64,000 nt of DNA from positions 2,923,060-2,987,059 of the forward strand of contig CM082583.2 in the NCBI GenBank assembly GCA_040954595.2. Reading direction: 5' to 3'. Positions 36,101 to 64,000 of this stretch are shown here, in pieces. The stretch's first letter is position 1; each line of letters begins with the position of its first letter. This stretch comes from Balanoglossus misakiensis. Its lineage: Eukaryota > Animalia > Hemichordata. A model generated the notes under the pieces. The model was given only the letters and a program-made list of their open reading frames with translations. It had not been told where the DNA came from and did no database searches. The position numbers and the translations under genes are program-made.

Positions 36101-37111
36101 CGACACAGTTCAGTACGGTCACATGCAACAAGTTGTCAATCCTCTTGTACGTGTATGCAGTTTGTTAGAAATCTGGTAAACTTGTGTGCACAGTTACCAT
36201 ATTGATCGATGATGGTACTGACATATTTAGAACCATACAAACTGCCAGTGATACACATGACGTCATGTAATATACTCTATGAGCTTGTGACCACCTGTAC
36301 ACACGATTACCAGACTCAGGAAGCTAAATGTTTCAATGACAGTACAATTACACAATCCTGGTAATCGCGACAGAGCCATCTATAAACGCAATAAATTAAA
36401 CACGAGTTTTAAACAACTTAAATCAGCTATCAGCAAACCGATTATGACACCTTACGTTCTTCCGACGACATTTCGGCAGCTTTGCAGTGGAGTTGATGAG
36501 GTGACAATCGCTTCGCTATAGATGTCACACCTTTCTACCATCAAATGTTTTCAATGTCCTGTCACGTCCTGCTCCCCATCTGCGCAGTCCAAGTGCGCAT
36601 ATGCCACGGGCTATTCCAATTAAACAAAGGGGTTCCGCGTTTCTACGTCGTTTTACCGAGTAAGTTTATATCGGGGTAGAAACCATATGGAATGGAGCAA
36701 GTCCTTGAATTATAATAAGTTTTGCATAGTCCATCGCTTTATGAAATTTTAGTGACAATATTGCCACTTGCTGTGCTGATATGTAGCTTAACAACATCAA
36801 CCTGGAAAAGTAACCCCCTCTTCGGCCAGAACTATTGAAAGTACCAACCAGCAGAATAAAACTGGGATAATTTTAGCCTGTGATATCGGCCCGGGGTCTT
36901 TTACACTTACCATTTTTGACGTTGGCAAATTTTTTTCTCGACAACAAAAATATCATCGCAAACGTTTTCTAAAATTCTTCTCCGACTTACCATTTCCATC
37001 TTTCTCGATTTCGTCATATTCGTGGTCATCAGCAATCGATCCTGTGGGCGTATCTTTAGGTACTGGATGGATGGGAGCACAACATACGACCGAACGAGAT
37101 CGAGATGCCAT
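1799..37111 (-). CDS. MCTP1: Multiple C2 and transmembrane domain-containing protein (MCTP1/2-like), whole spliced gene, 21 coding exons, 2643 nt, 880 aa
   Basis: 21 GT-AG exons join in phase into one ORF: low-complexity N-terminus, three C2 domains with acidic Ca-ligand loops (RDKSGTSDPY..YDYD..NDD; [17 protein letters not shown]; ADIGGKSDPL..YDED..LEF), hydrophobic segments, acidic linker, and the MCTP-type C-terminus [14 protein letters not shown]. Confidence 0.95.
2678..2775 (-). CDS. MCTP1: MCTP exon 20
   Basis: [33 protein letters not shown]; tag/gtaagt; phase 1 to 0. Confidence 0.96.
3030..3139 (-). CDS. MCTP1: MCTP exon 19 (second membrane segment)
   Basis: [36 protein letters not shown]; tag/gtaagt; phase 2 to 1. 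Confidence 0.96.
3661..3900 (+). mobile_element. Probable partial HINE/DINE-1-like element of a second family
   Basis: T-run then taggtcccatgggacct hairpin then (GGAT)n/GTCC microsatellite, the usual 5' layout of Helentron-associated elements; 3' end not identified. Confidence 0.4.
3935..4047 (-). CDS. MCTP1: MCTP exon 18
   Basis: [37 protein letters not shown]; tag/gtgagt; phase 0 to 2. Confidence 0.95.
4853..4858 (-). CDS. MCTP1: Candidate 6-nt microexon (Lys-Lys) of MCTP, not counted in the 21 exons
   Basis: Minus strand reads tttttgttccctgtttccttcaatgctaactatgcatcttacag AAAAAG gtatgt; frame-preserving in a phase 0 intron. Confidence 0.55.
6941..7000 (-). CDS. MCTP1: MCTP exon 17 (acidic linker)
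   Basis: [20 protein letters not shown]; ttacag/gtaaca; phase 0 to 0. Confidence 0.92.
7157..7240 (+). repeat. Dispersed repeat fragment, second copy at ~31908-31991
   Basis: Both loci share ttccctata(a)tagaggtccaac..taccatagaaaacaa...tttgga...aaccat.gtgg.gaaag.g.taat. Confidence 0.7.
7614..8122. repeat. Compound pentanucleotide microsatellite (GCAGT/GTAGT)n, about 100 units
   Basis: Directly visible; lies in MCTP intron 16. Confidence 0.98.
8335..8460 (-). CDS. MCTP1: MCTP exon 16 (first membrane segment)
   Basis: [28 protein letters not shown]...SDDD; tag/gtaagt; phase 0 to 0. Confidence 0.95.
8852..8971 (-). CDS. MCTP1: MCTP exon 15
   Basis: [12 protein letters not shown]...[16 protein letters not shown]; cag/gtaagt; phase 0 to 0. 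Confidence 0.95.
10086..10160 (-). CDS. MCTP1: MCTP exon 14
   Basis: [25 protein letters not shown]; cag/gtaaa; phase 0 to 0. Confidence 0.94.
10854..10955 (-). CDS. MCTP1: MCTP exon 13 (end of C2C)
   Basis: [34 protein letters not shown]; cag/gtgagt; phase 0 to 0. Confidence 0.96.
11625..11727 (-). CDS. MCTP1: MCTP exon 12 (C2C)
   Basis: [34 protein letters not shown]; tag/gtaagt; phase 2 to 0. Confidence 0.96.
12040..12152 (-). repeat. Dispersed repeat, related copies at ~24505-24570 and ~24772-24890
   Basis: Reverse complement ggagttctgtaatacaataattcgcggtatcagaatacaataa..caaatgaggacgc matches the 24.5-24.9 kb copies. Confidence 0.7.
12937..13039 (-). CDS. MCTP1: MCTP exon 11 (C2C)
   Basis: [34 protein letters not shown]; cag/gtgagt; phase 1 to 2. 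Confidence 0.96.
13474..13512 (-). CDS. MCTP1: MCTP exon 10 (39 nt, C2C)
   Basis: [13 protein letters not shown]; ttccag/gtaaac; phase 1 to 1. Confidence 0.92.
13849..13909 (-). CDS. MCTP1: MCTP exon 9
   Basis: [20 protein letters not shown]; cag/gtcaga; phase 0 to 1. Confidence 0.92.
14330..14516 (-). CDS. MCTP1: MCTP exon 8 (end of C2B, linker)
   Basis: [14 protein letters not shown]...LLTISG...VQKY; gtaagt donor; phase 2 to 0. Confidence 0.95.
14828..14958 (-). CDS. MCTP1: MCTP exon 7 (C2B)
   Basis: [17 protein letters not shown]...[14 protein letters not shown]; phase 0 to 2. Confidence 0.96.
15210..15316. repeat. Small MITE-like inverted repeat
   Basis: Perfect 18-bp inverted repeat ccaatctgattaaaatca (15210-15227) / tgattttaatcagattgg (15299-15316). 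Confidence 0.7.
15335..15665 (+). mobile_element. Non-autonomous DNA transposon (possibly PIF/Harbinger-like), same family as 49426-50008
   Basis: 15335-15535 aligns by eye with the reverse complement of ~49800-50008 (ccattaagacgg...gcgtctcagatca...gccggtcagacc...acacctctccgcaacccattgtc); superfamily is a guess from gggtcaca-type termini. Confidence 0.6.
16238..16414 (-). CDS. MCTP1: MCTP exon 6 (start of C2B)
   Basis: YLARKG...[40 protein letters not shown]; phase 0 to 0. Confidence 0.96.
20131..20239 (-). CDS. MCTP1: MCTP exon 5 (end of C2A)
   Basis: tttttag acceptor, LKNMKLKL...[11 protein letters not shown], gtaagt donor; phase 2 to 0. Confidence 0.93.
21308..21412. repeat. Fold-back hairpin element
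   Basis: aatagaatctcacactcctagggacct pairs almost perfectly with aggtccttggtgtgtgagattctatt. Confidence 0.75.
21855..22044 (+). mobile_element. Kolobok-like MITE, copy 1 (degenerate)
   Basis: Flanked by TTAA on both sides; internal sequence matches 23056-23239. Confidence 0.65.
22761..22983 (-). CDS. MCTP1: MCTP exon 4 (C2A core, [12 protein letters not shown]...LPAN)
   Basis: C2 motifs SDPYV, LNPRWDE, VYDYD; ag/gtaagt; phase 1 to 2. Confidence 0.96.
23056..23239 (+). mobile_element. Kolobok-like MITE, copy 2
   Basis: TTAA|aggtatacgatcacct ... aggtgaccgtatacct|TTAA: 16-bp TIR with one mismatch, TTAA duplication and AG..CT termini (RR..YY ends fit Kolobok rather than piggyBac). Confidence 0.75.
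24109..24836 (+). repeat. Diverged tandem duplication (copies start 24109 and 24570); copy 1 contains a hairpin at 24308-24469
   Basis: Shared text caccacagacattg...agatttattaatcagaaatctttagctgatgtacaa...gtgaaggttcata; perfect 30-bp inverted repeat cctattgcctggccatgagggccatagcag only in copy 1. Confidence 0.85.
30343..30908. mobile_element. Palindromic non-autonomous element, possibly Crypton-like
   Basis: About 65-bp-arm imperfect hairpin at 30343-30485, then ttattatatca paired with a distal tgatataataa (30899-30909) near ccaatcag. Family assignment is recalled resemblance only. Confidence 0.55.
33666..33931 (+). repeat. 133-bp tandem duplication, two apparently identical copies
   Basis: tattaaaaaaaatataaaattgcaaag...ctctcactaaaa starts at 33666 and 33799. 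Confidence 0.95.
34165..34252 (-). CDS. MCTP1: MCTP exon 3 ([29 protein letters not shown], start of C2A)
   Basis: ttgcag acceptor, CAG|gttggt donor, phase 0 to 1, C2 first strand and loop. Confidence 0.92.
35484..35908 (-). CDS. MCTP1: MCTP exon 2 (Ser/Asp-rich N-terminal region)
   Basis: ttcacag acceptor, 425 nt open, GAG|gtaact donor, phase 1 to 0. Confidence 0.85.
36255..36268. promoter_or_regulatory. Perfect CRE palindrome in MCTP intron 1
   Basis: acatgacgtcatgt, a 14-bp palindrome around TGACGTCA in the CpG-rich 5' region; function unproven. Confidence 0.3.
36991..37111 (-). CDS. MCTP1: MCTP exon 1 ([13 protein letters not shown]...EKDGN)
   Basis: ATG at 37111, G|gtaagt donor, phase 1 matches exon 2; no conserved domain, so less certain. 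Confidence 0.65.
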
Positions 37112-37748
37112 ATTCGTATACCACCAGTGCACGACAAAACGCAAATTGCTAAATATAGTTTCTTGAACGTGCATAAACCATTGGAATTCCTAAATAACAT
37201 TTTAGTTTCTCTTTACATTAGCCTTGGAATCGGAAAGATCGTCCCTGTGGGCCTGTTGTTCATAATTTTGAAGAAAGAAGCCCAGGGAAATGAATATTTT
37301 ATATTTCGTAAAAAAAATATACCGTCACTTTTACGTATTTTATGTTTTATAGGTAATTACACAAAAATTGTTGTAATCTATCCTGACGTGGTGGAGTATA
37401 GAGTGAAACTCACTGCCCAGGAAAACAAAAACATCAGTTTGTGACGTTGCGAGTTAGATCAGTTGCATTGTAATTAAAACTTTGACGTCTCCTCTCTATT
37501 GAAATATATATGAAATTTCATGAACAAATTTGATAATTACGGGCCCAAGCCAAGCCAGGCTTGGGCCCGTATTGGTTTCGTTGGAATTTTTAGGGCCCAA
37601 GCGCACGCAAGCGCTTGGGCCCTATTGGTTTCGTTGGGGTTTTTTAGGGCCCAAGCGCACGCAAGCGCTTGGGCCCTATTGGTTTCGTTGGGGTTTTTTA
37701 GGGCCCAAGCCCAGCAGGCTTGGGCCCTATTGGTATTACTGGCTTTTT

Positions 37749-39916
37749 TAGGGCCCAAGCCCAGCAGGCTTGGGCCCTATTGGTATTACTGGGGTTTTTC
37801 TTCTACTTCTTCTTCTTCTTCTTCTTGTGTCGTTTTTTTGTCCACCTAGATCGTGAAAACGGCTGAACCTACAAATCTCACATTTGGCACAATGGTGCAG
37901 GCCTATGAGAGCTGGTGCAGTACACTTGTGAATGTGTAATGAGTCATGTGACCTGATGACCATATATGGGCAAAAATTTTAATTTGGCCTAATTTGCATA
38001 TGAATGGAGATATCAAAATTCTGTTCAGATGCTTTGTGGACCATATGGCCAGGGTTCTACATGCCAAATGTCAAGGCCATAAGCCATGTCAATTTTGAGA
38101 AGAAGATTTTTAAGTATTATTTTCCATATTTTTCGCTCAAGCCATGGGCCTATACTTTACATAGTTAAGCTATTACCACAGATTATTTTGGATAAATATA
38201 CATACATATCTCAAAATCTGTTTGGCCGATCAATTCCAAAGTTGCTGTGCAGCTAGCCTAGCATTTGTCAATCATTTTAAGCGAAAAAAAATATATGAAA
38301 AATCAACCGATTTTTTTATATTAATTTTTTTATTAAATGTATACCTTTACTTATAGCTCCATAGTTAAGCTATGTCCACGTCTTATTGTGGAATTCTGGT
38401 CTGTGCAATGGTCCTGTAAAGTGACTGTCTATTGGCCAGTGAGCAGAATGGGACCAAAATAAAAGGCAAAATTTTGGGCTCACCTGTAACACCTGCTTAA
38501 CTCATTTATTATGTGCATACCTAATTCTGGGCTAACTAAGAGGGCTAGAGGTTTCGTTCTTGTGGGACATGGACCAGTATAGGGTCAAAATTTCTTGCCC
38601 AAATTTTGGGTGACCTCAGGTGACCTTTGACCTACTTTCCTATATCTCGGCATCCAGAGCAGGTACAGACTTGGCGTTTGGAGGGTTGGGACTAAAATTG
38701 AAAAGCCGAAATGGGGGTCACCTGCGACACCTGCATATCTCATTAATTATGTGCATACCTAATTCCAGGCTAACCAATAGGGCTATAGGTTTGGTTTTTG
38801 TTGAACATGGACCAGTATAGGGTCAACATTTCTTGCCCAAATTTTGTATGACCTCAGGTGACCTTTGACCTACTTTACGATATCTTGGCATCCAGAGCAG
38901 GTACAGACTTGGCGTTTGGAGGGCTGGGACTAAAATTGAAAAGCCGAAATGGGGGTCACCTGTGACACCTGCATATCTCATTAATTATGTGCATACCTAA
39001 TTCCAGGCTAACCAATAGGGCTATAGGTTTGGTTTTTGTTGAACATGGACCAGTATAGGGTCAAAATTTCTTGCCCAAATTTTGTATGACCTCAGGTGAC
39101 CTTTGACCTACTTTACCATATCTTGGCATCCAGAGCAGGTACAGACTTGGCGTTTGGAGGGTTGGGACTAAAATTGAAAAGCCGAAATGGGGGTCACCTG
39201 TGACACCTGCATATCTCATTAATTATGTGCATACCTAATTCCAGGCTAACCAATAGGGCTATAGGTTTGGTTTTTGTTGAACATGGACCAGTATAGGGTC
39301 AAAATTTCTTGCCCAAATTTTGTATGACCTCAGGTGACCTTTGACCTACTTTACCATATCTTGGCATCCAGAGCAGGTACAGACTTGGCGTTTGGAGGGT
39401 TGGGACTAAAATTGAAAAGCCGAAATGGGGGTCACCTGTGACACCTGCATATCTCATTAATTATGTGCATACCTAATTCCAGGCTAACCAATAGGGCTAT
39501 AGGTTTGGTTTTTGTTGAACATGGACCAGTATAGGGTCAAAATTTCTTGCCCAAATTTTGTATGACCTCAGGTGACCTTTGACCTACTTTACCATATCTT
39601 GGCATCCAGAGCAGGTACAGACTTGGCGTTTGGAGGGTTGGGACTAAAATTGAAAAGACAAAATTTGGGGTCACATGTGACACCTGCATATCTCATTAAT
39701 TATGTGCATACCTAATTCCAGGCTAACCAATAGGGCTATAGGTTTGGTTTTTGTCGGACATGGACTAGTATAGGGTCAAAATTTCTTGCCCAAATTTTTG
39801 CATGACCTCAGGTGACCTTTGACATATTTTTCCAAATCCAGAGCAGATATGCTTATTGCTATGTTGCTATGTGCTATGTTGGCTTGGGCCCGCTATTGCT
39901 GCTTGCAGCTATATTT
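37749..39916 (+). mobile_element. HINE family A, copy 1 (innermost, uninterrupted)
   Basis: 5' subTIR hairpin, (CTT)n microsatellite, core, about six 238-bp tandem units, 3' subTIR at 39881-39891 and stem-loop gctgcttgcagc. Confidence 0.88.
38450..39830 (+). repeat. 238-bp tandem array inside HINE A1
   Basis: tgacctttga recurs at 38621, 38859, 39097, 39335, 39573 and 39813; related units occur in all other bodies. Confidence 0.95.
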
Positions 39917-41565
39917 CTTCTACTTCTTCTTCTTCTTCTTCTTGTGTCGTTTTTTTGTCCAGCTAGATCTGGAGAACGGCTGAACCTACCAATTTCAAAC
40001 TTAGTACAATGGTGCAGGCCAATGAGAGCTGGTGCAGTACCCTCGTGAATGTTTAATTAGTCACGTGACCTGATGACCATATATGGGCAAAATTTTCAAA
40101 TCGCCCTAATTTGCATATGAATTGAGATATCAAAATTCTGTTCAGATACTTTGTGGACCATATGGCCAGGGTTCTACATGCCAAATGTCAAGGCCATAGG
40201 CCATGTCAATTTTGAGGAGAAGATTTTTAAGTATTATTTTCCATATTTTTCGCCCAAGCCATCGGCCTATACTTTACATAGTAAAGCTATGACCACATAT
40301 TATTTTGGATAAATATGCATACATATCTCAAAATCTGTTAGGCCGATCATCTCCAACTTTGGTGTGCAGCTAGTCTAGCATTTGTCAATAATTTTAAGCG
40401 AAAAAAAATAATATGAAAAATCGACCGATTTTTTTATATTAATTTTTTTATTAAATTTATACATTTACTTATACCTCTATGGTTTAGCTATGTCCATGTC
40501 TTATTGTGGAATTCTGGTCTGTGCAATAGTCCTGTAAAGTGACTGTCTATTGGTCAGTGAGCACAATAGCACCAAAATAAAAGGCACGATTTTAGGCTCA
40601 CCTGTAACACCTGCTTAACTCATTAATTATGTGCATACCTAATTCTGGGCTAACTAAGAGGGCTAGAGGTTTCGTTCTTGTGGGACATGGGCCAGTATAG
40701 GGTCAACATTTCTTGCCCAAATTTTGGGTGACCCCAGGTGACCTTTGACCTACTTTCCTATATCTCGGCATCCAGAGCAGGTACATACTTGGCGTTTGGA
40801 GGGTTGGGACTAAAGTTGAAAAGCCAAAAAGGGGGTCACCTGTGACACCTGCATATCTCATTAATTATGTGCATACCTAATTCAAGGCTAACCAATAGGG
40901 CAATAGGTTTGGTTTTTGTTGAACATGGACCTGTTTAGGGTCAAAATGTCTTGCCCAAATTTTGTATGACCTCAGGTGACCTTTGACCTACTTAACCAGA
41001 TCTTGGCATCCAGAGCAGGTACAGACTTGGCGTTTGGAGCGTTGGGACTAAAATTGAAGAGGCAAAATTGGGGGTCACCTGTGACACCTGCCTACATCAT
41101 TAATTATGTGCATACCTAATTCCAGGCTAACCAATAGGGCTATAGGTTTGGTTTTTGTTGAACGTGGACCAGTATAGGGTCAAAATTTATTGCCCAAATT
41201 TTGCATGACCTCAGGTGACCTTTGACCTACTTTACCATATCTTGGCATCCAGAGCAGATACAGAATTGGCGTTTAGATGGTTGGGACTAAAATTAAAAAG
41301 CCAAATTGGGGGGTCACCTGTGACACCTGCCTACCTCATTAATTATGTGCATACCTAATTCCAGGCTAACCAATAGGGCTATAGGTTTGGTTTTTGATGA
41401 ACATGGACCAGTATAGGGTCAAAATTTCTCGCCCAAATTTTGCATGACCTCAGGTGACCTTTGACCTACTTTTCCATATCTTGGCATCCAGAGCAGATAT
41501 GCTTATTGCTATGTTGCTATGTGCTATGTTGGCTTGGGCCCGCCATTGCTGCTTGCAGCTATATT
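39917..41565 (+). mobile_element. HINE family A, copy 2 body and 3' end (head at 37699)
   Basis: Resumes with cttctacttcttc exactly as copy 1 does after its head; about four 238-bp units; same 3' end. Confidence 0.88.
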
Positions 41566-42987
41566 CTTTCTTTCTTTTTTCTTGTGTCAATTTCTTCGGC
41601 CAACGAGATCTCTGAAACTACTGCAGGTACACTTCTCAAACTTGATACAGTGGTCAAGGTCAATGAGTAGATGTGCAGTGACTTGTGAATAATTAATTAG
41701 TCACGTGACCTGGCGGCCATATTGGATTTTCTGAAAAAATTCAAATCTCAGATCTCAGAAACTACAAGTCAGATCGACTTCAAATTTGGCATGCAGGTAG
41801 ACTACCTTCTACCCATCATTTTTGTAATTGGAAATTTTGCTGTCAATGTTGCAGTTTTTTTGCTACAATTTTTTTTCTGAAATCTGGCTTAAATTTCAAA
41901 AATCTTCTTCTCCAGAACCAGTGATAACCGAGACACGGGGTTTGGGGTATGTGGTCACCTAACTGATGTCTATCAAGTTTGCGAAGATCATTGTGATTGG
42001 TCAAAGATTATGGCGGCCATATTGGATTTTAGAAAAACCATTGTTAAACTCCAAAAATCTTCCTCTCCAGAACGGGCGATGACTGAGTCGCAAGATTCGG
42101 GGAGTATGGTCACTACACTGATGTCTATCAAGTTTGCAAAGAGCATTGTGATTGGTCGAAGATTATGGCGGCCATATTGGATTTTGTAAAAAGCAGTGAA
42201 AAATTGAAATTCCTTTTTCTAGTCTAAAAATTGATAGCATACAAATTCTTTTTATGGATATCAATCGTCATGTGACTAAAATATGTCACAATTTTTTGGC
42301 GATTTTTCACATGACCTTTGACCTACTTATCACGCGTTATTATTTCTGCATATCTAATTCCAGGCTAACCTATAGGGCTAGACGTTTGGTTTTTGATGAA
42401 TGTGGATTAGTGTGTGATCAAAATATTTTGCTACTTTTCATGACCCCTTTGACCTCTGCTGACCTCATTAATTATGTGCATAGCTAATTACAGGCGAACC
42501 AATAGAGCTAGAGGTTTGGTTTTTGTTGGACACAGACCAGTATGGGATCAAAATTTTTTGCCCAAATGTTGCGTGACCTCTGGTGACCTTTGACCTACTT
42601 TCGCATATCTCAGCATCCAGAGCAGATACAGCCATGGCATTTGGTAGGATGGGACCAAAATGTAAAGCCACATTTTTGGGTCACCTATGACACCTGCTGA
42701 CCTCATTAAATATGCACATACCTAATTACAGGCGAACCAATAGAGCTAGAGTTTTGGTTTTTGTTGGACATGGACCAGTATGGGTCAAAAAAAAATTGCC
42801 CAAATGTTGGGTGACCTCAGGTGACCTTTGACCTACTTCACCCTATTTAAGCAGCAAAAATACACACGTCCTTGTTATGTCATGAGATAATACATCCGAT
42901 AGAAAATTCTGTTTCTTCTCATTCATACTGTGCATATATAATTCAAGATCAGCGCTTGGGCCCGACAATGCTGCTCGCAGCTTTAAT
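41566..42987 (+). mobile_element. HINE family B, copy 1 body and 3' end (head at 37645)
   Basis: 3' subTIR gcgcttgggccc is complementary to gggcccaagcgc of heads 37591/37645; stem-loop gctgctcgcagc. Confidence 0.88.
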
Positions 42988-44399
42988 CTTTCTTTCTTTT
43001 TTCTTGTGTCAATTTCTTCGGCCAACGAGATCTCTGAAACTACTGCAGGTACACTTCTCAAACTTGCTACAGTGGTCAAGGTCAATGAGTAGATGTGCAG
43101 TGACTTGTGAATAATTAATTAGTCACGTGACCTGGCGGCCATATTGGATTTTCTGAAAAAATTCAAATCTCAGATCTCAGAAACTACAAGTCAGATCTAC
43201 TTCAAATTTGGCATGCAGGTAGACTACCTTCTACCCATCATTTTTGTAATTGGAAATTTTGCTGTCAATGTTGCAGTTTTTTTGCTACAATTTTTTTTCT
43301 GAAATCTGGCTTAAATTTCAAAAATCTTCTTCTCCAGAACCAGTGATAACCGAGACACGGGGTTTGGGCTATGTGGTCACCTAACTGATGTCTATCAAGT
43401 TTGCGAAGATCATTGTGATTGGTCGAAGATTATGGCGGCCATATTGGATTTTCGAAAAACCATAGTTAAACTCCAAAAATCTTCTTCTCCAGAACGGGCG
43501 ATGACTGAGTCGCAAGATTCGGGGAGTATGGTCACTACACTGATGTCTATTTAGTTTGCAAAGAGCATTGTGATTGGTCGAAGATTATGGCGGCCATATT
43601 GGATTTTGTAAAAAGCAGTGAAAAATTGAAATTCCTTTTTCTAGTCTAAAAATTGATAGCATACAAATTCTTTTTATGGATATCAATCGTCATGTGACTA
43701 AAATATGTTACAATTTTTTGGCGATTTTTCACATGACCTTTGACCTACTTATCACGCGTTATTATTTCTGCATATCTAATTCCAGGCTAACCTATAGGGC
43801 TAGACGTTTGGTTTTTGATGAATGTGGATTAGTGTGTGGTCAAAATATTTTGCTACTTTTCATGACCCCTTTGACCTCTGCTGACCTCATTAATTATGTG
43901 CATAGCTAATTAAAGGCGAACCAATAGAGCTAGAGGTTTGGTTTTTGTTGGACAAAGACCAGTATGGGATCAAAATTTTTTGCCCAAATGTTGCGTGACC
44001 TCTGGTGACCTTTGACCTACTTTCGCATATCTCAGCATCCAGAGCAGATACAGCCATGGCATTTGGTAGGATGGGACCAAAATGTAAAGCCACATTTTTG
44101 GGTCACCTGTGACACCTGCTGACCTCATTAAATATGCACATGCCTAATTACAGGCGAACCAATAGAGCTAGAGTTTTGGTTTTTGTTGGACATGGACCAG
44201 TATGGGTAAAAAAAATTGCCCAAATGTTGGGTGACCTTAGGTGACCTTTCACCTACTTTCAGCAGCAAAAATACACACATCCTTGTTATGTCATGAGATA
44301 ATACATCCGATAGAAAATTCTGTTTCTTCTCATTCATACTGTGCATATATAATTCAAGATCAGCGCTTGGGCCCGACAATGCTGCTCGCAGCTTTAATT
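42988..44399 (+). mobile_element. HINE family B, copy 2 body and 3' end (head at 37591)
   Basis: Near-identical to 41566-42987. Confidence 0.88.
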
Positions 44400-45811
44400 C
44401 TTTCTTTATTCTTATGTCAATCTTTGCTCTCCTAGATCTCTGAAACGGCTACAGGTACACTTCTCAAACTTGCTACAGTGGTCAAGGTCAATGAGTAGAT
44501 GTGCAGTGGCTTGTGAATATTTAATTAGTCACGTGACCTGGCGGCCATATTGGATTTTCTGAAAATGTTTAAATGGCTTCTTCTCAAAAACCACAGGGCC
44601 AATCAAGTTCAAATTTGGTGTATGGTACACATGTCCTCTGCCCTTCAAAAATTGACAATAAAATCCTGAGCGGTCACGTGACCTTGGCCGCCATATTGGA
44701 TTTTCGAAAAAGTACAGTAAAATCTTCAAAAATCTTCTTCTCCAGAACCGGCAATAACCGAGTCATGGGATTTAGGGTATGACATCACCTAACTGATGTC
44801 TATCAAGTTTGCGAAGAGCGTTGTGATTGGTCGAAGATTATGGCGGCCATATTGGATTTTGTAAAAACCAGTGAAAATTAAGAAATCATTTTTCTAGTCT
44901 AAAAATAGATAGCATACAAATTCTTTTTGTTGATATGAGTCGTCATATGACTAGAATATGTTGCAAATTTTTTGGCAATTTTCACATGACCTTTGACCTA
45001 CTTTTTTAAGAACCTGCATATATGCATATATAGCTCATACTACCTGTTCTAAATGTACCAGAGTTCTGATTTTTGTGCACATTGGTATCATCCCTGCCAG
45101 GACCTACCCCAAATATTTTGGTAATTTTGGCAATGACCTTTGACCTACTTTTGACACATCGTTTTTTCTGCATATCTAATTCCAGGCTAACCAATAGGGC
45201 TATAAGTTTGGTTTTTGATGTATGTGGATTTGTATGTGATCAAATAATTTTGCTACTTTTCGTGACCCCTTTGACCTCTGCTGACCTCATTAAATATGCA
45301 CATACCTAATTACAGATGAACCAATAGACCTAGAGGTTTTGTTTTTTTTATACATGGACCTTTATGGTGTCAAAATATTTTGCCCAAATGTTGGGTGACC
45401 TCGGGTGACCTTTGACCTACTTTTGCATATCTCGACATCCACAGCAGATACAGCCTTGGCGTTTGGAGGTATGGGGCCATAATGAAAAGCCAAAGTTTTG
45501 GGTCACCTGTGACACCTGCTTAACTCATTATTTATGTGTATACCTAATTCCGGGCTAACCAAAAGGGCTAGAGGTCTGGTTTTTGTTGGACATGGACCAC
45601 TATGGGTCAAAATTTTCTGCCCAAATTGTGGGTGACCTCTGGGTGACCTTTGACCTACTTAACACTATATCAACACCAAACATAGATATAACCTTGATAT
45701 TTCATGGGATAAAACACAGCATTATGTTTCTACTCATTAATTATGTGCATTTCTAATAATCAGACCAGATAATAGAGCTTGGGCCCGGACAATGCTGCTT
45801 GCAGCTTTAAT

Positions 45812-48065
45812 TACGGGCCCAAGCCAAGCCAGGCTTGGGCCCGTATTGGTTTCGTTGGAATTTTTAGGGCCCAAGCGCACGCAAGCGCTTGGGCCCTATT
45901 GGTTTCGTTGGGGTTTTTAGGGCCCAAGCGCATACCAGCGCTTGGGCCCTATTGGTTTCGTTGGGGTTTTTCTGTCTTTCCTTCTTTCTTCTTTCTTCTT
46001 TCTTCTTCTTTCTTTATTCTTGTGTCAATTCTTTGTCGCTCTAGATCTCAGACACCACTGCAGGTACACTTCTCAAACTTGCTACAGTGGTCAAGGTCAA
46101 TGAGTAGATGTGCATTGAACCCTTGAATTTTTAATTAGTCACGTGACCTGGCGGCCATATTAGATTTTCTGAAAAAATGCAAATCTCAGATCTCAGAAAC
46201 TACAAGTCAGATCGACTTCAAACTTGGTGTGCAGGTAGTCTACCTTCTACCCATCATTTTTGTAATTGGATATTTTGCTGTCAATGTTGCAGTTTTTTTG
46301 CTACAGTTGTTTTTCTGAAATCTGGTCAAAATTTCAAAAATCTTCTTCTCCAGAACCGGCGATAACCGAGTCACGCGGTTTGGGGTATGTGGTCACCAAA
46401 CTGAGGTCTATCAAGTTTGCGAAGATCATTGTGATTGGTCGAAGATTATGGCGGCCATATTGGATTTTCGAAAAACCCTAGTAAAATTTCAAAAATCTTC
46501 TTCTCAAGAACCGGCGATAACCGAGTCACAAGATTTGGTGTGTGTGGTCATTAAACAGATGTCTATCAAGTTTGCGAAGATCATTGTGATTGGTCGAAGA
46601 TTTTGGCGGCCATATTGGATTTTGTGAACAACGATTAAAAAGTAAAAATTCTGTTTCTAGCCTAAAAATTGATAGCACAGAAATTCTTTTTATGGATATG
46701 AATCATCATATGACAAGAATAAGCTATAAATATTTTGGTAATTTTGGCAATGACCTTTGACCTACTTTTGACGCATCATTTTTCTGCATATCTAATTCCA
46801 GGCTAACCAATAGGGCTATAAGTTTGGTTTTTGATGTATGTGGTTTTGTATGTGATCAAAAATTTTTGCTACTTTTCATGACCCCTTTGACCTCTGCTGA
46901 CCTCATTAAATATGCGCATACCTAATTACAGATGAACCAAATGACCTAGAGGTTTGTTTTTTTCTGGACATGGATCAGTATGGGGTCAAAATATTTTGCC
47001 CAAATGTTGGATGACCTCGGGTGACCTTTGACCTACTTTTGCATATCTCGACATCCACAGCAGATACAGCCTTGGCGTTTGGAGGTATGGGGCCATAATG
47101 AAAAGCCAAAGTTTTGGGTCACCTGTGACACCTGCTTAACTCATTAAGTATGCGCATACCTAATTACAGACGAACTAATAGATCTAGAGTTTTTGTTTTT
47201 TTTGGACATGGACCAGTATTTGGTCAAAGAATTTTGGGTGACCTCAGTGACCTTTTACCTACTTTCTCATATCTTGGCATCCACTGCAGGTACAGGCTTA
47301 GCATTTGGAGGGATGGAACACCTCACCGAATCCCACAATTTACCCCATTAATTATTCGCATATATAATTCCAAGCGAACCAATAGGGCTAGAGGTGTGTT
47401 TTTGTTGAATTCAAAAGTTTTTGCCCAAATTTTGGATGAACTGAGGTGACTTTTAACCTACTTTACCATATCTCGGCACCAACAGTAGCTACAGCCTTGT
47501 CCTTTCGAGGGATGGGATCAAAATTAAAAGGCAAATTTTGGGGTCACCTGTGACACCTGCTTGACTCATTAATTACGTGCATACCTGATTCCAGGCCTAC
47601 CAAATGGAATAGAGGTCTGGTTTTTGTTGAACATGGACCAATATGGGGTCACAATCTTTTGCCAAAATTTAGGGTGACCTGACCTGACCTTTACAGGAGT
47701 TACATCCTTTGTTTTTTGAGGGATGGGACAAAAATGAAAAGCTAAATTTTTGGTTAATCTGTGACACCTTCTTAACCTCATTAATTATGCACATACCTAA
47801 TTCCAGGCTAACCAACACAGCTAGCAGTTCCATTTCAGTTGGGCATGGACCAGTATGGCATCAAAATATTTTGGAGCAATTTTTTTGTGAACTTTGACCT
47901 AATTTTACAAATCTCGGCATCCAGGGCAGATACCGCTTTACTCATGTTGTCGGACACCTTACCACATTAAATTTTACGCTGACCAATAGTGGCAGAAGGG
48001 AAGCTGGGACCAGTATGGGACCAAATTTTTGACAAATTTTTGGGTAACCTTGGGATGACCTTTTA
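45812..48065 (+). mobile_element. Second stack: three HINE/Helentron heads (45812, 45865, 45918) and body D with decaying ~240-bp units; no 3' end in the window
   Basis: Heads 45812 and 45865 match heads 37538 and 37591; third head is a new variant (loop cataccag); body shares sequence with bodies B and C. Confidence 0.85.
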
Positions 48066-49425
48066 GTTTTCATTATCGTGATATGTTGAAACACTTAATG
48101 CGTTCTTATACTTCACCTCCTTATTTTGCCTACAACAAATAGTATCCTTAAAAATAAGAGGGCTTACATGTTTTGTGTTTTGGATCTCCACTAGTATGTG
48201 ACAACATTATTTGAGAAATATTTGTGTATTAGACCTTCAAGTTTTCTTTATCTTGGTATCCGGAAAATCTACCAAACCAGATATATTGTACAGAGTACAG
48301 AGAGACATGAAAGTCAGACGTGGACATTTTGTTTTAAGTGGTCAGCGACCTATAATGTAGACTAAAATAAAGAGATGACTACAGTAAAAGGCTTATGTTA
48401 AAAAGCAATGATTCAACTTACAGGTTTATCTGAAGCACATAAAACAAATGGTTGACATCAGTTGAGGTTGGTTTTTGTTATTGCAAGAAACTAAACAAAC
48501 ACAGATTACAATTGTTCACAGTTTTAAGCAATTATATCCAGCTGACAATGGCCAAGTATAATAATAACTAATAATAATAACTAAATAATAAGTTCAGACA
48601 CCATTTAATTTCTGAAAAAGAGGATTAGTGAAATTAAGTTAGCATCTTTCTAAATTGTTTGAACATCCATTTGATACAGTGCATATTTAACACGACAAAT
48701 ACTTAAGAACATATATGTATTATGAGGACATATCTAGTATACAACAAAGCAAATCTGACCTTGACAAAAGTCTACTTGAATTTTAAAATACAGTTCAGCA
48801 TATCCATTAAGACATTTCTTGTTGTGCACAATTTTAGAAAATCAAACGGGACATAGCATTGACAGAAATAGTCATTAAACGTAATCTGACAACTTGATTG
48901 TGTACAAGCCTTAATTGCAGATCATTTGTTAAAGGTACAAAGTAGCTTTTGTTTGCCCTTTTTGATATCATTCAAGAATACAGAGAGTACCTGCATTAAG
49001 TCACTGACTGTGCAATATGCTGTCAGTGCATAACCTAAAAAGGGGTCAGTAAATACCCCTTTGCTGTAAGTAAAGTTGTGATTTTGTGTGTGATACGAAA
49101 TGAATACCTGTACCAAAGTACGTTTCCTTTTGACAAATAACATTGCCATGGCATTGTACATGGCAGTTATACATGAAAGAATACTACACTCTGAGATCTC
49201 ATGCCAAGATCCATGTGGTCTAAATAGTTTGCAACACTGGCTATATATTCAAATACATGGATAAAAGTTTAGCACACAGTGGAAAACTGGGTGGACATCA
49301 TAAATTATTTATGTGAATGTTCAATCTTGTATGTTGATATACAAGCATAGTTCACCAGTACAGTACTGTACTGGTAAACACAGAGCATTAATCCTTTAAG
49401 TCGCTGCACACACACACAGTTTATT

Positions 49426-50008
49426 AGGCTGTTCACAATACTCAGAACGGGTCTGGCCGACCTTTGTCCGGACAATTTTTGTCCCAGTTGAATGGGTTGG
49501 TTTGTATCCTACTCTGGTCCGACTCTGGTCCCACTACGGTGTGTGTGGACACGTTTTGTCCGAATCTGGTCCCAGATTGACATAATAGTGTAGTCCATCG
49601 TTTGACAATGAAGAAAATCGTATGAACAACCATTAGAGGACCAACATGGTTCTGCTTTATAAGGTGAAAGGTTGGCGAGACACCACTGGCCAGGACTGTG
49701 CCAATCACAATGTGAACGGGGACTAAAGATTAGCTTGTCTTGTCACAATCATCAGTGACACGTTTTGCCCGGCCATGGGCCCAGATGTGAACCCACCATA
49801 AGTAGGGGCGCTGAGGCTTAGTCCCATGGACAATGGGTTGCGGAGAGGTGTTACAGTAATTCTTTACACCGGCTCCGGTCTGACCGGCAAATGCTGTCTC
49901 AAATCTAAGCAATTTCAGAACCACTAAACACTGTCCACACCTGATTCTTTAAGATGGTATCTGATCTGAGACGCTTCAGAACCGTCTTAATGGTGTGTAT
50001 GTGACCCT
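49426..50008 (-). mobile_element. Non-autonomous DNA transposon (possibly PIF/Harbinger-like), same family as 15335
   Basis: GC-richer block with imperfect termini aggctgttcacaatac / gtatgtgaccct and homology to 15335-15535. Confidence 0.55.
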
Positions 50009-50359
50009 ATACAGTTTACAGTGTTTCAATAAGTCAAACAACAGGTCCAGTTTTGAATATTAAGTCAACACAAAATGAAAATACATAATTATTTGATTGA
50101 AACCATTCTTGATAATACAAATGACAATTTCAAATCATGTTATAAAATAACTATCTTGACTCAAAATTGGCTATTTACATGGAATACCAAACATCAAGAA
50201 ACTTATTTCAGAATAAAAAGTACAACTTAAATTATTTCTATTACTCTCATAATGCAGGCAAATATCTTTACTGTAATAAAAAATCATCCAGTACAATAAG
50301 TTGTTCAAAATACAGTATTTCATGTTTCTTTTTACAAAATGCAATATATACGCTATACC

Positions 50360-50603
50360 ACACAGTATTAAAAGCAGGTGAATTATGTACATGTACTCAA
50401 TATTGCATACCATATGATCATACAAACAAATGTACACACAGAAGTGAATACCCCATGGTGTAGCAATAAAATTGTTAAATTACACAGTATTAAAAGCAGG
50501 TGAATTATGTACATGTACTCAATATTGCATACCATATGATCATACAAACAAATTTACACACAGAAGTGAATACCCCATGGTGTAGCAATAAAATTGTTAA
50601 ATT
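50360..50603 (+). repeat. 122-bp tandem duplication
   Basis: cacagtattaaaagcagg...aaaattgttaaatt at 50361 and 50483. Confidence 0.95.
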
Positions 50604-50691
50604 GTAATTATATCATACCAAGCAGCAATGTAAATTGTTCTAAAATACTTTTTATATTTAACATAGATTTTATATATACATAGAAAATGAC

Positions 50692-50757
50692 TACATACAT
50701 ACATACATACATACATACATACATACATACATACATACATACATACATGCCTGCATG

Positions 50758-50795
<38 letters not shown>
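50692..50795. repeat. (TACA)n and (CA)n microsatellites
   Basis: Directly visible. Confidence 0.95.
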
Positions 50796-51047
50796 TGCAT
50801 ATACACATGTACATATGTTACAAATGTACATATGCCAGTGCATACATGACAAAGACATACAGACAGATATAACATTATGACAGCCAGGCAGCCTGTCTTA
50901 AATTACTCAATCCTTCGCCTGAGTTTATCTTCAGACAGACAGACAGACAGACAACTCACTAAGGCGTGTAGACAACCTAGTCTTAATTACCCTGTCCTCC
51001 CCCAGAGTTTATATCTTTTTCTGAAAGTTAAATCACAACATGTTAGA

Positions 51048-54000
51048 CAAATTATTTGCAGTTGGTGTATCGCTACCTTATCGTAACCTTATCAAAAGCA
51101 ATCTGGTGGTCAATATTATTTTGCGGTAAGGTAAATACATGTTATGTAAAATGTTGATGTCAGCTTTCTCAGATTATATCATAAGGCAGTTGAACGACAT
51201 GCACACACTATTGCTACAGATCCCGACTACCCACTTTAAAAATTCTTTTAAAATCTCCAATTATGGACATGCTACAGAGATCAATTTAACAGGAAACAAT
51301 TCCTTTGGAAAATACTTTTCCCAACAGCTATATCTATTTTAAATTCAAGTTTCATCCTTTTTTAGTTTTATCCAGTGCTGCAGATGTGCTTTTCATCATG
51401 TTGTCTTATTTGTGTATATACATTGTTATCAAAATGTCATTTATCCTGAATTTATAACTGATTGATGAGCCTCATGAAGACAAGTTTCACAGCTATTGTT
51501 GACAATTAAGTATTTGAATTGATTTAACATAGGAGCCAGTATAAGAACATTTAACCTCTTGCTGGGTAGTTTTGTTTTTATCTAGTCTCACTCCCAGACC
51601 TCATCGCTGTGCACCATAGTGTGCTACTGGCAGTATGACCAGGCAAGGAGCGCAGCGACAAGCACAAGTCGCCCGCCAAATCAGATCACTTGCCCGGTCA
51701 TGTCCTACCACCAGAAGCACACACTTTGCCCTGGTGAAGCAACAAGGTCTGGTACCATCACTCAGCTTTTCCGTAACAAAGGCCATTATTAAATCATGTA
51801 CGTGAATGAGGTTTTTCCTCGTGACGGGTTATATCTTTATTTTTCTAATAACACTTATGTTATTTCAAAACACAACTCTAAATTAATATTTTGATCCTTA
51901 TTGCTTCATGAAAGCTAAAGTATTTTGGTACAACATTTACCGTCACACTTTCTATTCCTTTCTCAGACACAAGATCAATCAATTTATTAGCTTCTGTAGT
52001 TAATTTGCTTCAAATTATTTGCAGTTGGTGTATCGCTACCTTATCGTAACCTTATCAAAAGCAATCTGGTGGTCAATATTATTTTGCGGTAAGGTAAATA
52101 CATGTTATGTAAAATGATGATGTCAGCTTTCTCAGATTATATCATAAGGCAGTTGAACGACATGCACACACTATTGCTACAGATCCCGACTACCCACTTT
52201 AAAAATTCTTTTAAAATCTCCAATTATGGACATGCTACAGAGATCAATTTAACAGGAAACAATTCCTTTGGAAAATACTTTTGCCAACAGCTATATCTAT
52301 TTTAAATTCAAGTTTCATCCTTTTTTAGTTTTATCCAGTGCTGCAGATGTGCTTTTCATCATGTTGTCTTATTTGTGTATATACATTGTTATCAAAATGT
52401 CATTTATCCTGAATTTATAACTGATTGATGAGCCTCATGAAGACAAGTTTCACAGCTATTGTTGACAATTAAGTATTTGAATTGATTTAACATAGGAGCC
52501 AGTATAAGAACATTTAACCTCTTGCTGGGTAGTCTTGTTTTTATCTAGTCTCACTCCCAGACCTCATCGCTGTGCACCATAGTGTGCTACTGGCAGTATG
52601 ACCAGGCAAGGAGCGCAGCGACAAGCACAAGTCGCCCGCCAAATCAGATCACTTGCCCGGTCATGTCCTACCACCAGAAGCACACACTTTGCCCTGGTGA
52701 AGCAACAAGGTCTGGTACCATCACTCAGCTTTTCCGTAACAAAGGCCATTATTAAATCATGTACGTGAATGAGGTTTTTCCTCGTGACGGGTTATATCTT
52801 TATTTTTCTAATAACACTTATGTTATTTCAAAACACAACTCTAAATTAATATTTTGATCCTTATTGCTTCATGAAAGCTAAAGTATTTTGGTACAACATT
52901 TACCGTCACACTTTCTATTCCTTTCTCAGACACAAGATCAATCAATTTATTAGCTTCTGTAGTTAATTTGCTTCAAATTATTTGCAGTTGGTGTATCGCT
53001 ACCTTATCGTAACCTTATCAAAAGCAATCTGGTGGTCAATATTATTTTGCGGTAAGGTAAATACATGTTATGTAAAATGATGATGTCAGCTTTCTCAGAT
53101 TATATCATAAGGCAGTTGAACGACATGCACACACTATTGCTACAGATCCCGACTACCCACTTTAAAAATTCTTTTAAAATCTCCAATTATGGACATGCTA
53201 CAGAGATCAATTTAACAGGAAACAATTCCTTTGGAAAATACTTTTGCCAACAGCTATATCTATTTTAAATTCAAGTTTCATCCTTTTTTAGTTTTATCCA
53301 GTGCTGCAGATGTGCTTTTCATCATGTTGTCTTATTTGTGTATATACATTGTTATCAAAATGTCATTTATCCTGAATTTATAACTGATTGATGAGCCTCA
53401 TGAAGACAAGTTTCACAGCTATTGTTGACAATTAAGTATTTGAATTGATTTAACATAGGAGCCAGTATAAGAACATTTAACCTCTTGCTGGGTAGTCTTG
53501 TTTTTATCTAGTCTCACTCCCAGACCTCATCGCTGTGCACTATAGTGTGCTACTGGCAGTATGACCAGGCAAGGAGCGCAGCGACAAGCACAAGTCGCCC
53601 GCCAAATCAGATCACTTGCCCGGTCATGTCCTACCACCAGAAGCACACACTTTGCCCTGGTGAAGCAACAAGGTCTGGTACCATCACTCAGCTTTTCCGT
53701 AACAAAGGCCATTATTAAATCATGTACGTGAATGAGGTTTTTCCTCGTGACGGGTTATATCTTTATTTTTCTAATAACACTTATGTTATTTCAAAACACA
53801 ACTCTAAATTAATATTTTGATCCTTATTGCTTCATGAAAGCTAAAGTATTTTGGTACAACATTTACCGTCACACTTTCTATTCCTTTCTCAGACACAAGA
53901 TCAATCAATTTATTAGCTTCTGTAGTTAATTTGCTTCAAATTATTTGCAGTTGGTGTATCGCTACCTTATCGTAACCTTATCAAAAGCAATCTGGTGGTC

Positions 54001-54905
54001 AATATTATTTTGCGGTAAGGTAAATACATGTTATGTAAAATGATGATGTCAGCTTTCTCAGATTATATCATAAGGCAGTTGAACGACATGCACACACTAT
54101 TGCTACAGATCCCGACTACCCACTTTAAAAATTCTTTTAAAATCTCCAATTATGGACATGCTACAGAGATCAATTTAACAGGAAACAATTCCTTTGGAAA
54201 ATACTTTTGCCAACAGCTATATCTATTTTAAATTCAAGTTTCATCCTTTTTTAGTTTTATCCAGTGCTGCAGATGTGCTTTTCATCATGTTGTCTTATTT
54301 GTGTATATACATTGTTATCAAAATGTCATTTATCCTGAATTTATAACTGATTGATGAGCCTCATGAAGACAAGTTTCACAGCTATTGTTGACAATTAAGT
54401 ATTTGAATTGATTTAACATAGGAGCCAGTATAAGAACATTTAACCTCTTGCTGGGTAGTTTTGTTTTTATCTAGTCTCACTCCCAGACCTCATCGCTGTG
54501 CACTATAGTGTGCTACTGGCAGTATGACCAGGCAAGGAGCGCAGCGACAAGCACAAGTCGCCCGCCAAATCAGATCACTTGCCCGGTCATGTCCTACCAC
54601 CAGAAGCACACACTTTGCCCTGGTGAAGCAACAAGGTCTGGTACCATCACTCAGCTTTTCCGTAACAAAGGCCGTTATTGAATCATGTACCTGAATAAGG
54701 TTATTCCTCGCGGTGGGTTATATCTTTATTTTTCTAATCACACTGATTTTATTTCAAAACACAAGTCTAAATAATTATATTTTGATGCTTATTGCTTCAT
54801 GAAAGCTGAAGTATTTTGGTACCACATTTACTGTCACATATTTTATTCCTTTCACATACACATGATCAATCAATGTATTAGCTTCTGTAGTTGGTTCGCT
54901 AACAA
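51048..54905. repeat. 963-bp tandem array, four units, overlapping the 3' end of the Helentron ORF
   Basis: caaattatttgcagttgg starts at 51048, 52011, 52974, 53937; units nearly identical; the ORF track repeats with the same period. Confidence 0.97.
54725..54730 (-). terminator. Candidate polyadenylation signal of the Helentron transcript
   Basis: AATAAA on the minus strand about 45 nt after the TAA; a second at 54748-54753. Confidence 0.45.
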
Positions 54906-62478: not shown

Positions 62479-62869
62479 CTGGAACAAAGCAAATATACTG
62501 TCTAGTTAGGTTTTTACTATCCTTTCACCACCAGACTTCGGATAACCTTCTCATCAAATCACATCACTAGTGATTATAACCAGTAAAAAGCAGTGGAACT
62601 TTTAACAGACAGAAGTGATTTATAGAAACTAAGTCCGAACAAGGTTGTAATTCAACAGCAACACATAATACACACATATCCCCATGCCTGTATACAAATA
62701 GACACATATACACACAAAGTATCACAGACACACTTTTTTTCTGCTGGAACACAGGATAAGGCTTAAATCCTAACCCCTGTATGACTTAACATTCTGGCAT
62801 TCACATTAGAATGTGCTCAGACAAATCTCAGATCTGAGTGAAATTTTCTTTAAAAATAATTTCCACTAT

Positions 62870-63632
62870 TTAGCAATATCAAGTCCAAGTACGATAGGCA
62901 TACATGTATGAATTTGCACAGACATAAACAAATACACGGACACCCCAACATCCACCATGTACAACCAAATAAGGCTTCAGACCTGACCCTGAATGACCCG
63001 ACATTTTCCCATTTACGTTGCAATGTACTCAGCCAAATCTGAATAAAATTTCACTTCAAAACCATTTCCACCAGTTAGCAATATCAAGTCCAAGTCTGAT
63101 AGGCATACATGTATGAATTTGCACACACATAAACAAATACACGGACACCAAAACATCCACCGTGTACAACCAAATAAGGCTTCAGACCTGACCCTGAATG
63201 ACCCGACATTTTCCCATTTACGTTGCAATGTACTCAGACAAATGTGAATAAAATTTCACTTCAAAACCATTTCTACCAGTTAGCAATATCAAGTCCAAGT
63301 ACGATAGGCATACATGTATGAATTTGCACACACATAAACAAATACACGGACACCCCAACATCCACCGTGTGCAACCAAATAAGGCTTCAGACCTGACCCT
63401 GAATGACCCGACATTTTCCCATTTACGTTGCAATGTACTCAGCCAAATCTGAATAAAATTTCACTTCAAAACCATTTCCACCAACTAGCAATATCAAGTC
63501 CAAGTACGATAGGCATACATGTATGAATTTGCACACACATAAACAAATACACGGACACCCCAACATCCACCATGTACAACCAAATAAGGCTTCAGACCTG
63601 ACCCTGAATGACCCGACATTTTCTCATTTTCA
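62870..63632. repeat. 205-bp tandem array, about 3.7 units, upstream of the Helentron ORF
   Basis: tagcaatatcaagtccaagt at 62871, 63076, 63281, 63486. Confidence 0.96.
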
Positions 63633-64000
63633 TTATGCACTCATACGAATCACAAACGATTGTTATAGACCTGATTTACACTTAACAATTTAATATACAA
63701 GTTCAATAACAAGGCAGGGATATCAAGAAACATACATCATACCAATGTTTTATTGAAGCCACTGTTGTAAGAAACGGCACTATCCAATGGTCTTAACACC
63801 ACATAGCACAATGATTGTTCTGCACATACAAGTCCCTTCCTTTCTGATGTATTCAATAAACACCATTTCTATGAACTATTCTAATATGTTTTTGTTCCAT
63901 CACCCCTGAATAACAAATTCAAAGAAATGGGCTAGTGCTTTTACATGTTAACAGACGGTGCATGGAAGTGGACAATCATCCTATCTGATATTAAACCACA

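Follow-up and report, generated by a model that had tools for sequence, protein, structure and literature searches.

In the accessible parts of the published accounts, HINE/DINE-1-like elements (Thomas et al. 2014, PMC4067079) and the oyster Cg_HINEs (PMC7492417) carry a 5' subTIR folded into a hairpin, a microsatellite, central tandem repeats, a 3' subTIR and a stem-loop; they enter T-rich targets without duplication and bear terminal T. What these accounts describe is clustering and a preference for T or TT, whereas the family studied here has repeatedly entered its own members at a single internal point. In the FoHeli elements of Fusarium oxysporum (Helitron2), the first 31, 65, 73 or 85 nt are repeated and self-insertion near the 5' end has been proposed (PMC5148889), as has later movement of the composites; up to five 5' ends have been reported (PMC13342296). 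Similarly, nesting of family members has been proposed in maize as the origin of multiple ends (PMC3288121), 17.6% of helA having several 5' ends; unlike the elements studied here, helA are canonical Helitrons, and the accessible text describes no fixed insertion point for them. Finally, the Paramecium Helitrons resemble the present elements as rolling-circle elements with a narrow, strand-specific simple-repeat target, but they form a separate clade and target a host repeat instead of their own 5' end (PMC13085455).

Here, we describe a well-supported nested stack with a non-random internal target in the hemichordate Balanoglossus misakiensis, a variant form of the known Helitron2/Helentron self-insertion. 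As in FoHeli, short 5' ends are stacked, with five and three heads in two clusters. In contrast to FoHeli, where several heads share one 3' end and where, in the accessible text, the nested precursor is only proposed, the first cluster has five tails, and five bodies with their tails, from three subfamilies, are preserved around one site. Our search of the literature outside subscription journals found no animal for which an intact bracket stack of several subfamilies at a single fixed point is described.

The window, by which we mean the whole stretch of 64,000 nt that was analysed (GCA_040954595.2, CM082583.2, positions 2,923,060-2,987,059, forward strand), is AT-rich eukaryotic DNA with C2-domain exons scattered on its minus strand. 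A 5-bp repeat is present in 102 copies at 7614-8123. Searching the window with both hairpin arms located eight heads and five tails, all within 37541-45949 (Table 1). In the first cluster (37538-45812), five 5' heads in the order C, B, B, A, A are followed by five headless bodies in mirror order (A, A, B, B, C); every body has a C/T microsatellite at its start and a subTIR, a small stem-loop and 1-3 T at its end. The two A bodies are 93.6% identical and the two B bodies 97.8%, while the fifth body (C) is about 80% like the B bodies.

Table 1. Positions of the nested elements and of the Helentron frame in the window
Feature	Positions	Strand	Details
Head 1, subfamily C, outer left boundary	37538..37591	+	14-bp-stem hairpin 37538-37571, spacer, T-run 37587-37591 holding B2
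Head 2, B	37591..37645	+	hairpin 37591-37624; T-run 37640-37645 holding B3
Head 3, B, identical to head 2	37645..37699	+	T-run 37694-37699 holding A4
Head 4, A, spacer variant ending in C	37699..37749	+	hairpin 37699-37729; T-run 37744-37749 holding A5
Innermost A element, uninterrupted	37749..39916	+	head 5, intact T-run 37795-37799, (TTC)n microsatellite
A4 headless body	39917..41565	+	microsatellite first, 3.8 x 239-bp repeats, tail 41533, 2 T
B3 headless body	41566..42987	+	(CTTT)-type microsatellite, 2 x 155-bp repeats, tail 42955, 1 T
B2 headless body	42988..44399	+	97.8% like B3; tail 44366, 2 T
Outer C headless body	44400..45812	+	tail 45778; TT joins tail directly to next C head
Second cluster, heads C, B, B'	45812..45971	+	occupied T-runs end 45865, 45918; intact run 45967-45971
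Lone body after second cluster	45972..48063	+	87% like B over first 1.3 kb; fades out without tail
Helentron transposase frame, uninterrupted, 2567 aa	54775..62478	-	OTU, Rep, PIF1 helicase, AP-endonuclease-like

By the structural definition given in the accessible parts of four reports (PMC4067079, PMC7492417, PMC11417382, PMC3630058), the nested elements are HINEs, i.e. non-autonomous Helentrons. Their 5' subTIR and an adjoining inverted repeat form a hairpin with a 13-14 bp stem; the computed folding energies range from -16.8 to -18.9 kcal/mol and lie below all 300 shuffles in the three heads tested (head 1, -18.8 kcal/mol against -13.0 for the best of 300 shuffles). The 3' subTIR, found about 30 nt from the end in five of five tails, is perfectly complementary to the 5' subTIR over 10-14 bp and is followed by a stem-loop, which in the A and C tails has a 4-bp core and is weak (-3 to -5 kcal/mol); the B tail folds differently. 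A (TTC)n or (TTTC)n microsatellite lies near the 5' end, and arrays of 155-bp or 238-bp repeats occupy the centre; the innermost A element, for example, has 5.7 copies of a 238-bp repeat, a 3' subTIR at 39883, a small 3' stem-loop and 3 T. Insertion is at TT or T-rich sites without duplication, as seen in the T counts of four of four pairs and in an empty allele at the TT of 37537-37538 (both described below). The elements appear to have no coding capacity, the longest stop-to-stop frame in 37500-48100 being 116 aa.

The stack almost certainly arose by true nested insertion. An earlier note on this DNA, made from its letters alone, had placed six junctions in one and the same T-run of the element. 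A T-run followed by a new head does stand at 37591, 37645, 37699, 37749, 45865 and 45918, and the spacer quoted in that note precedes the T-run at all six; only four of the junctions, however, are two-sided. These belong to the first cluster, where matching downstream halves (tails 39883, 41533, 42955 and 44366, with the outer tail at 45778) bear out the proposal that both ends of the host element stay intact. The position just before the C/T microsatellite was also correctly seen, as the unoccupied heads (37795-37799 and 45967-45971) have their T-run joined to the microsatellite. The T-runs start 16-18 nt past the gggccc arm of the hairpin, which is 14-15 nt past the folded stem; the occupied runs hold 5-6 T, and the predicted cut lies about 15-21 nt beyond the stem.

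The T residues at the two-sided junctions can be accounted for. We took the T at tail-to-head joins (A, 3; B, 2) and the length of the intact head T-runs (C, 5; B, 5; A with the C-type spacer, 6) from public contigs of other samples, with 1-11 contigs for each value. The T on the left plus the T on the right minus the element's own T then gives 5, 5, 5 and 6, which equals the intact host run in four of four pairs. Such counts are those of a clean insertion without target duplication and would not be predicted by slippage; since T-runs themselves slip, the match is supportive and no proof. The two B insertions divide the host run as 5+2 and 6+1, and must thus have used different cuts within it. 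Pairing of the ends agrees with the bracket order in B (heads pair best with B tails, 12 against 10 bp) and in A (11 against 10 bp). The exception is head 1, which pairs over 14 bp with the A tails and over 11 bp with the C tail assigned to it; its assignment to C is by position, by the matching numbers of heads and bodies, and by C-tail-to-C-head joins in three contigs among the matches listed. The pairing itself (37538-37551 with 39878-39892 and 41528-41542) is an observation in its own right, as the A heads pair over only 11 bp with these tails. Subfamily A may be a chimera or may retain an ancestral repeat.

An alignment of the unique 5' parts of the two A elements, A1 and A2 (INDEPENDENCE), shows 54 differences over 676 positions and, in addition, 5 gap columns; the 238-bp repeat is present in 5.7 and 3.8 copies, respectively. 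In line with the independent arrivals suggested earlier from such differences, they came from different donors, since both spacer variants are common in the sample with the predicted empty allele at this site (at spacer position 37743, G makes up 136,336 of 188,068 depth units in run X1). B2 and B3 are closer, with 20 differing positions, 2 gaps and identical heads; whatever the identity of their donors, the bracket shape still needs an insertion. Two lines of thought were dropped. The shared orientation of the inserts adds no evidence, since a target on the T strand already fixes orientation, and homologous recombination between a circle and a resident element predicts head-to-tail tandems instead of brackets.

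The T-run is not the only recurrent kind of junction, contrary to what had been proposed. At 45811-45812 a C tail is joined directly to a C head, and tails make up five of the nine listed contexts before heads in the contigs of other samples. These contigs repeat tail-to-head joins for A, B and C, mostly matched by subfamily, and such joins may come from rolling-circle tandems or from circles, or may mark the terminal T as another preferred site.

The second cluster is less complete. A scan of the window allowing up to 2 mismatches found no tail for it; three heads are followed by one body, and two outer bodies are missing from the window. Without their downstream halves, the joins at 45865 and 45918 cannot count as verified two-sided insertions. 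Moreover, 37537-37639 and 45811-45913 are identical over 103 nt, and the six junctions are therefore at most five distinct ones. To judge from this identity, the first two heads of the second cluster may be a copy of heads 1 and 2. In sum, four junctions are verified, one more is distinct and one-sided, and one is a possible duplicate. The tailless body at 45972-48063 and the two absent outer bodies may be explained by a deletion, by truncation of a copy, or by a long element that extends beyond the window. No support was found for a long element that opens with the third head and encloses the reversed Helentron frame: the flanks of that frame share no repeats with the nested family, and no tail was found in the window.

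Part of the region is present in five public runs from two studies. Four were compared with the window and three of them again on the heads, run X5 serving in the first comparison only and run X3 (share 0.14) being left out. Low-complexity stretches were excluded from the read comparison, and depth there carries no meaning; the results come from the best 15 of 143 joints, 18 of 79 loose ends and 23 of 1270 pieces. In sample S1 (runs X1 and X2), 57-58% of words are present and the left flank has 0-1 differences over about 300 bp. Two contigs (X1 record 2, 799 bp; X2 record 9, 943 bp) match the flank, depart from the window at 37538, at the TT of 37537-37538, and continue at flank depth for about 715 letters that are unplaced elsewhere among the matches listed. 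Read from these contigs, the sample has a predicted empty allele, seen at its left boundary, with 37538 as the predicted first base of head 1; the outer insertion is thus likely polymorphic. The summed contig depth of the heads exceeds that of the flank more than 1000-fold, which makes the family very abundant. Pattern scans for heads and tails in metagenome_contigs, viral_contigs and genome_contigs gave 0 matches.

The same contigs contain head-to-head joins that are absent from the window, namely C to C (depth 140, with 38 letters on a side) and B to C (depth 3875, with 21 letters on a side; depth 9 in X2). The G-type A spacer precedes a head in both S1 runs. Variant joins have 4-8 other letters, one of them at depth 723 against a flank depth of 39, and an 89-bp B-to-B variant has 8 other letters; organism B contributes two short A-to-A contigs. 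At least 31 matched letters on both sides are found only in the C-to-C joint and in one 89-bp record, and the remaining head-to-head contigs, including both from organism B, are to be taken as hints. Among nine listed contexts before a head, assigned by eye, five are tails, two are head spacers, two are other DNA and none is the interior of a body; among the best 15 of 143 joints, one ends at a head start, leaving from a head T-run.

Is the head T-run hit more often than its abundance predicts? Very probably it is. Besides the head run, 15, 22, 22 and 12 runs of at least 5 T or A are present in the four host bodies, in line with the earlier remark that other T-runs are plentiful. If insertion were proportional to such runs, four matches on the head run would have p = 9e-6; a TTTT^Y motif as the null gives 1e-5 and TT steps give 3e-8, all of which speaks against a simple preference for TT or T-runs, as had been claimed. 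Because the site was picked after the data were seen, the first hit can be set free, giving p = 1.5e-4; for cross-subfamily events only, again with the first free, p = 0.043, or 0.002 with the unverified B' join added. No head word (up to 1 mismatch) was found inside any of 6 bodies. A rule of entry at the first TT after the hairpin was discarded, as the spacer contains three TT steps closer to the hairpin that were not entered.

Several observations bear on what guides this choice. A T6 run lying 9 nt inside the B microsatellite and followed by CTT is unused in two of two B hosts, which favours position, and a T7 run 33 nt into the A microsatellite is unused in the one A host. The older, occupied heads keep their hairpin, spacer and 5-6 T, and none was hit again (1/24 by our own arithmetic, if heads were equal). 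This hints that the downstream pyrimidine tract is also needed, or that stacks were pre-assembled; the hairpin alone may be insufficient. We thus lean slightly towards a two-part site, made of the resident 5' end and the step from T-run to microsatellite, with the resident 5' end as the main guide. Recruitment by the resident hairpin had been put forward earlier; the unused T6 in both B hosts speaks against the microsatellite alone as the guide, but hairpin and microsatellite flank the same run, and are confounded, in every copy.

How such a site might work can be sketched. The perfect, GC-rich hairpin of a resident copy could bind the transposase or extrude, and the DNA could melt where purines give way to pyrimidines as the microsatellite starts. 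Once engaged at the resident 5' end, a Helentron transposase would open or nick the adjacent T-run, and an incoming circle or strand would be joined within the exposed T. The newest head would be preferred because it alone has its T-run still joined to the microsatellite. Some multi-head units were probably copied later as a block, which would explain the second cluster. As far as the accessible texts go, HUH nucleases use single-stranded DNA as substrate, and Helraiser donors undergo a left-end nick and peeling, are reused and form circles (PMC5876387, PMC4778049); the absence of local hopping reported for Helraiser (PMC4778049) counts against local self-targeting. It is tempting to extend the proposal to a general rule by which Helentron/Helitron2 transposases land on a resident 5' hairpin and integrate about 15-20 nt behind it, since the Fusarium 31-nt repeat ends, by our own arithmetic on the accessible data of PMC5148889, 15 nt past a 16-nt hairpin. 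We regard this extension as tentative and rather doubtful; in the same source the repeats of 65, 73 and 85 nt show that the Fusarium site is not a single one.

Among the alternatives, the one that survives best keeps the insertions real and site-biased but makes the T-run joined to the C/T microsatellite the guide, either by melting easily or by suiting the endonuclease, with the hairpin as a bystander. It fits well with every insertion having entered the newest head, in which alone T-run and microsatellite were still joined (chance 1/24), and with the scarcity of the motif, a T-run of at least 4 followed by CTT occurring 0-1 times per body. There is also some precedent in the accessible literature: a title cited in PMC4067079 has helitron-like elements disrupting (GAAA)n microsatellites, and Paramecium Helitrons are proposed to enter telomeric repeats (PMC13085455). 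It does not, however, account for the unused T6 of the B hosts, which is likewise followed by CTT, or for the unused T7 of the A host. Moreover, the microsatellite of A differs from that of B and C while the distance to the hairpin is constant, and outer insertions lie at plain TT (the flank at 37538 and two contig flanks). We therefore consider a guide in the microsatellite unlikely, and prefer the two-part site led by the resident 5' end.

A second alternative assumes one or two rare insertions that were amplified as mobile multi-head composites, following the Fusarium model, so that the recurrence is mostly shared ancestry. The repetition of heads 1 and 2 at the start of the second cluster, the identity of heads 2 and 3 and the likeness of B2 to B3 would all follow from copying, as would a second cluster with several heads and one body. 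The outer head is missing from the empty allele, as if the stack had come at once. Two head-to-head joins run far deeper than the flank (about 19 and 26-34 times, bearing in mind that depth is no copy number), which suggests copying of a few composites and not many events, and the high-depth contigs, too short to reach flanks, suggest multi-head units at different loci. Against this, at least 5 distinct host/guest pairs are present in the window and more in the contigs, and the T splits differ between insertions. Unless four tails were bypassed, copying would leave many heads to a single body instead of five bodies that match; indeed, mobility of the whole composite would require the bypass of four inner tails. 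Each link, besides, still requires an insertion at the same spot. Amplification as the main source of the recurrence is accordingly quite improbable to us, and repeated insertion at the head T-run remains the preferred reading.

The remaining two alternatives fare worse. A scheme without insertions, in which a 54-bp head unit slipped and the bodies multiplied by unequal crossing-over, could appeal to the heads forming a 54-bp tandem array and to bodies that share repeats at 80-98%; it is contradicted by the complementary T counts across each pair, by the numbers of heads and bodies, which match in each subfamily and mirror each other in order, and by contigs in which the A and B subfamilies are kept apart, for heads and bodies alike, and we think it very improbable. 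Least credible is a plain TT or T-run preference of a very abundant family with a chance pile-up at this locus, which draws on a head depth that makes nests bound to occur and on the taste of HINEs for T-rich sites in the accessible reports (PMC4067079, PMC7492417), but which faces p values of 1e-5 to 3e-8 for four hits, given landing in the host, with the odds of landing extra.

The window also holds a candidate enzyme. The frame at 54775-62478 has OTU, Rep, PIF1 and exonuclease-endonuclease-phosphatase domains, with PF14214, PF05970, PF03372 and PF02338 above cut-off, and, judged from these domains and its uninterrupted length, is a predicted complete Helentron transposase; a 467-aa part of it has no relative in viral_contigs. 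Neither strand beside the frame carries a terminus or repeat of the nested family within the window, which ends 1.5 kb upstream of the frame, and the repeats flanking the frame share nothing with that family. This protein may thus be the wrong enzyme for the nicking assay proposed earlier: it is a candidate partner only, pointing to a potentially active Helentron in the genome. A clear pair of its own subTIRs with a 3' stem-loop was not found in 45800-64000, and one end of this Helentron likely lies outside the window. Several repeats surround it. About four near-identical copies of a 963-bp unit lie past the frame (51048-54908; the first three 99.6-99.7% alike), 3.8 copies of a 205-bp unit lie before it (62859-63629), and the frame itself contains 45-bp and 54/66-bp coding repeats. 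On the minus strand at 50875-51016, two related modules of about 60 nt have (GTCT)5 between them and more microsatellite after (alignment score 57, best of 1000 shuffles 47); a second family of rolling-circle elements, perhaps that of the Helentron itself, may have its ends stacked here.

On the left of the stack, an ATG at 37111 on the minus strand opens a 40-codon frame that ends at a GTAAGT donor site (36985-37111). This is likely a first coding exon, perhaps of a multi-C2-domain gene further left. The stack would then sit in a likely promoter, some 430 bp upstream of this exon, and another allele lacks it.

The locus preserves a nested precursor of the kind from which, in the accessible text of the Fusarium and maize papers, multiple 5' ends are only proposed to have arisen. 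Its hairpin, 15-nt spacer, T5 and microsatellite amount to a minimal test substrate, at a time when biochemistry has been called for on the role of the Helentron endonuclease domain and on target choice (PMC4067079, accessible part). An annotation would break such stacks up into a 54-bp minisatellite and a set of truncated bodies. The accumulation of these elements in repeat blocks and the origin of chimeric subfamilies would be easier to understand with a fixed self-target. Moreover, if the rule of landing on a resident 5' end is true, host genes would be spared and both ends of the host element kept, multi-head composites would record the order of arrival, and 55 nt of DNA would serve as an address for rolling-circle integration.
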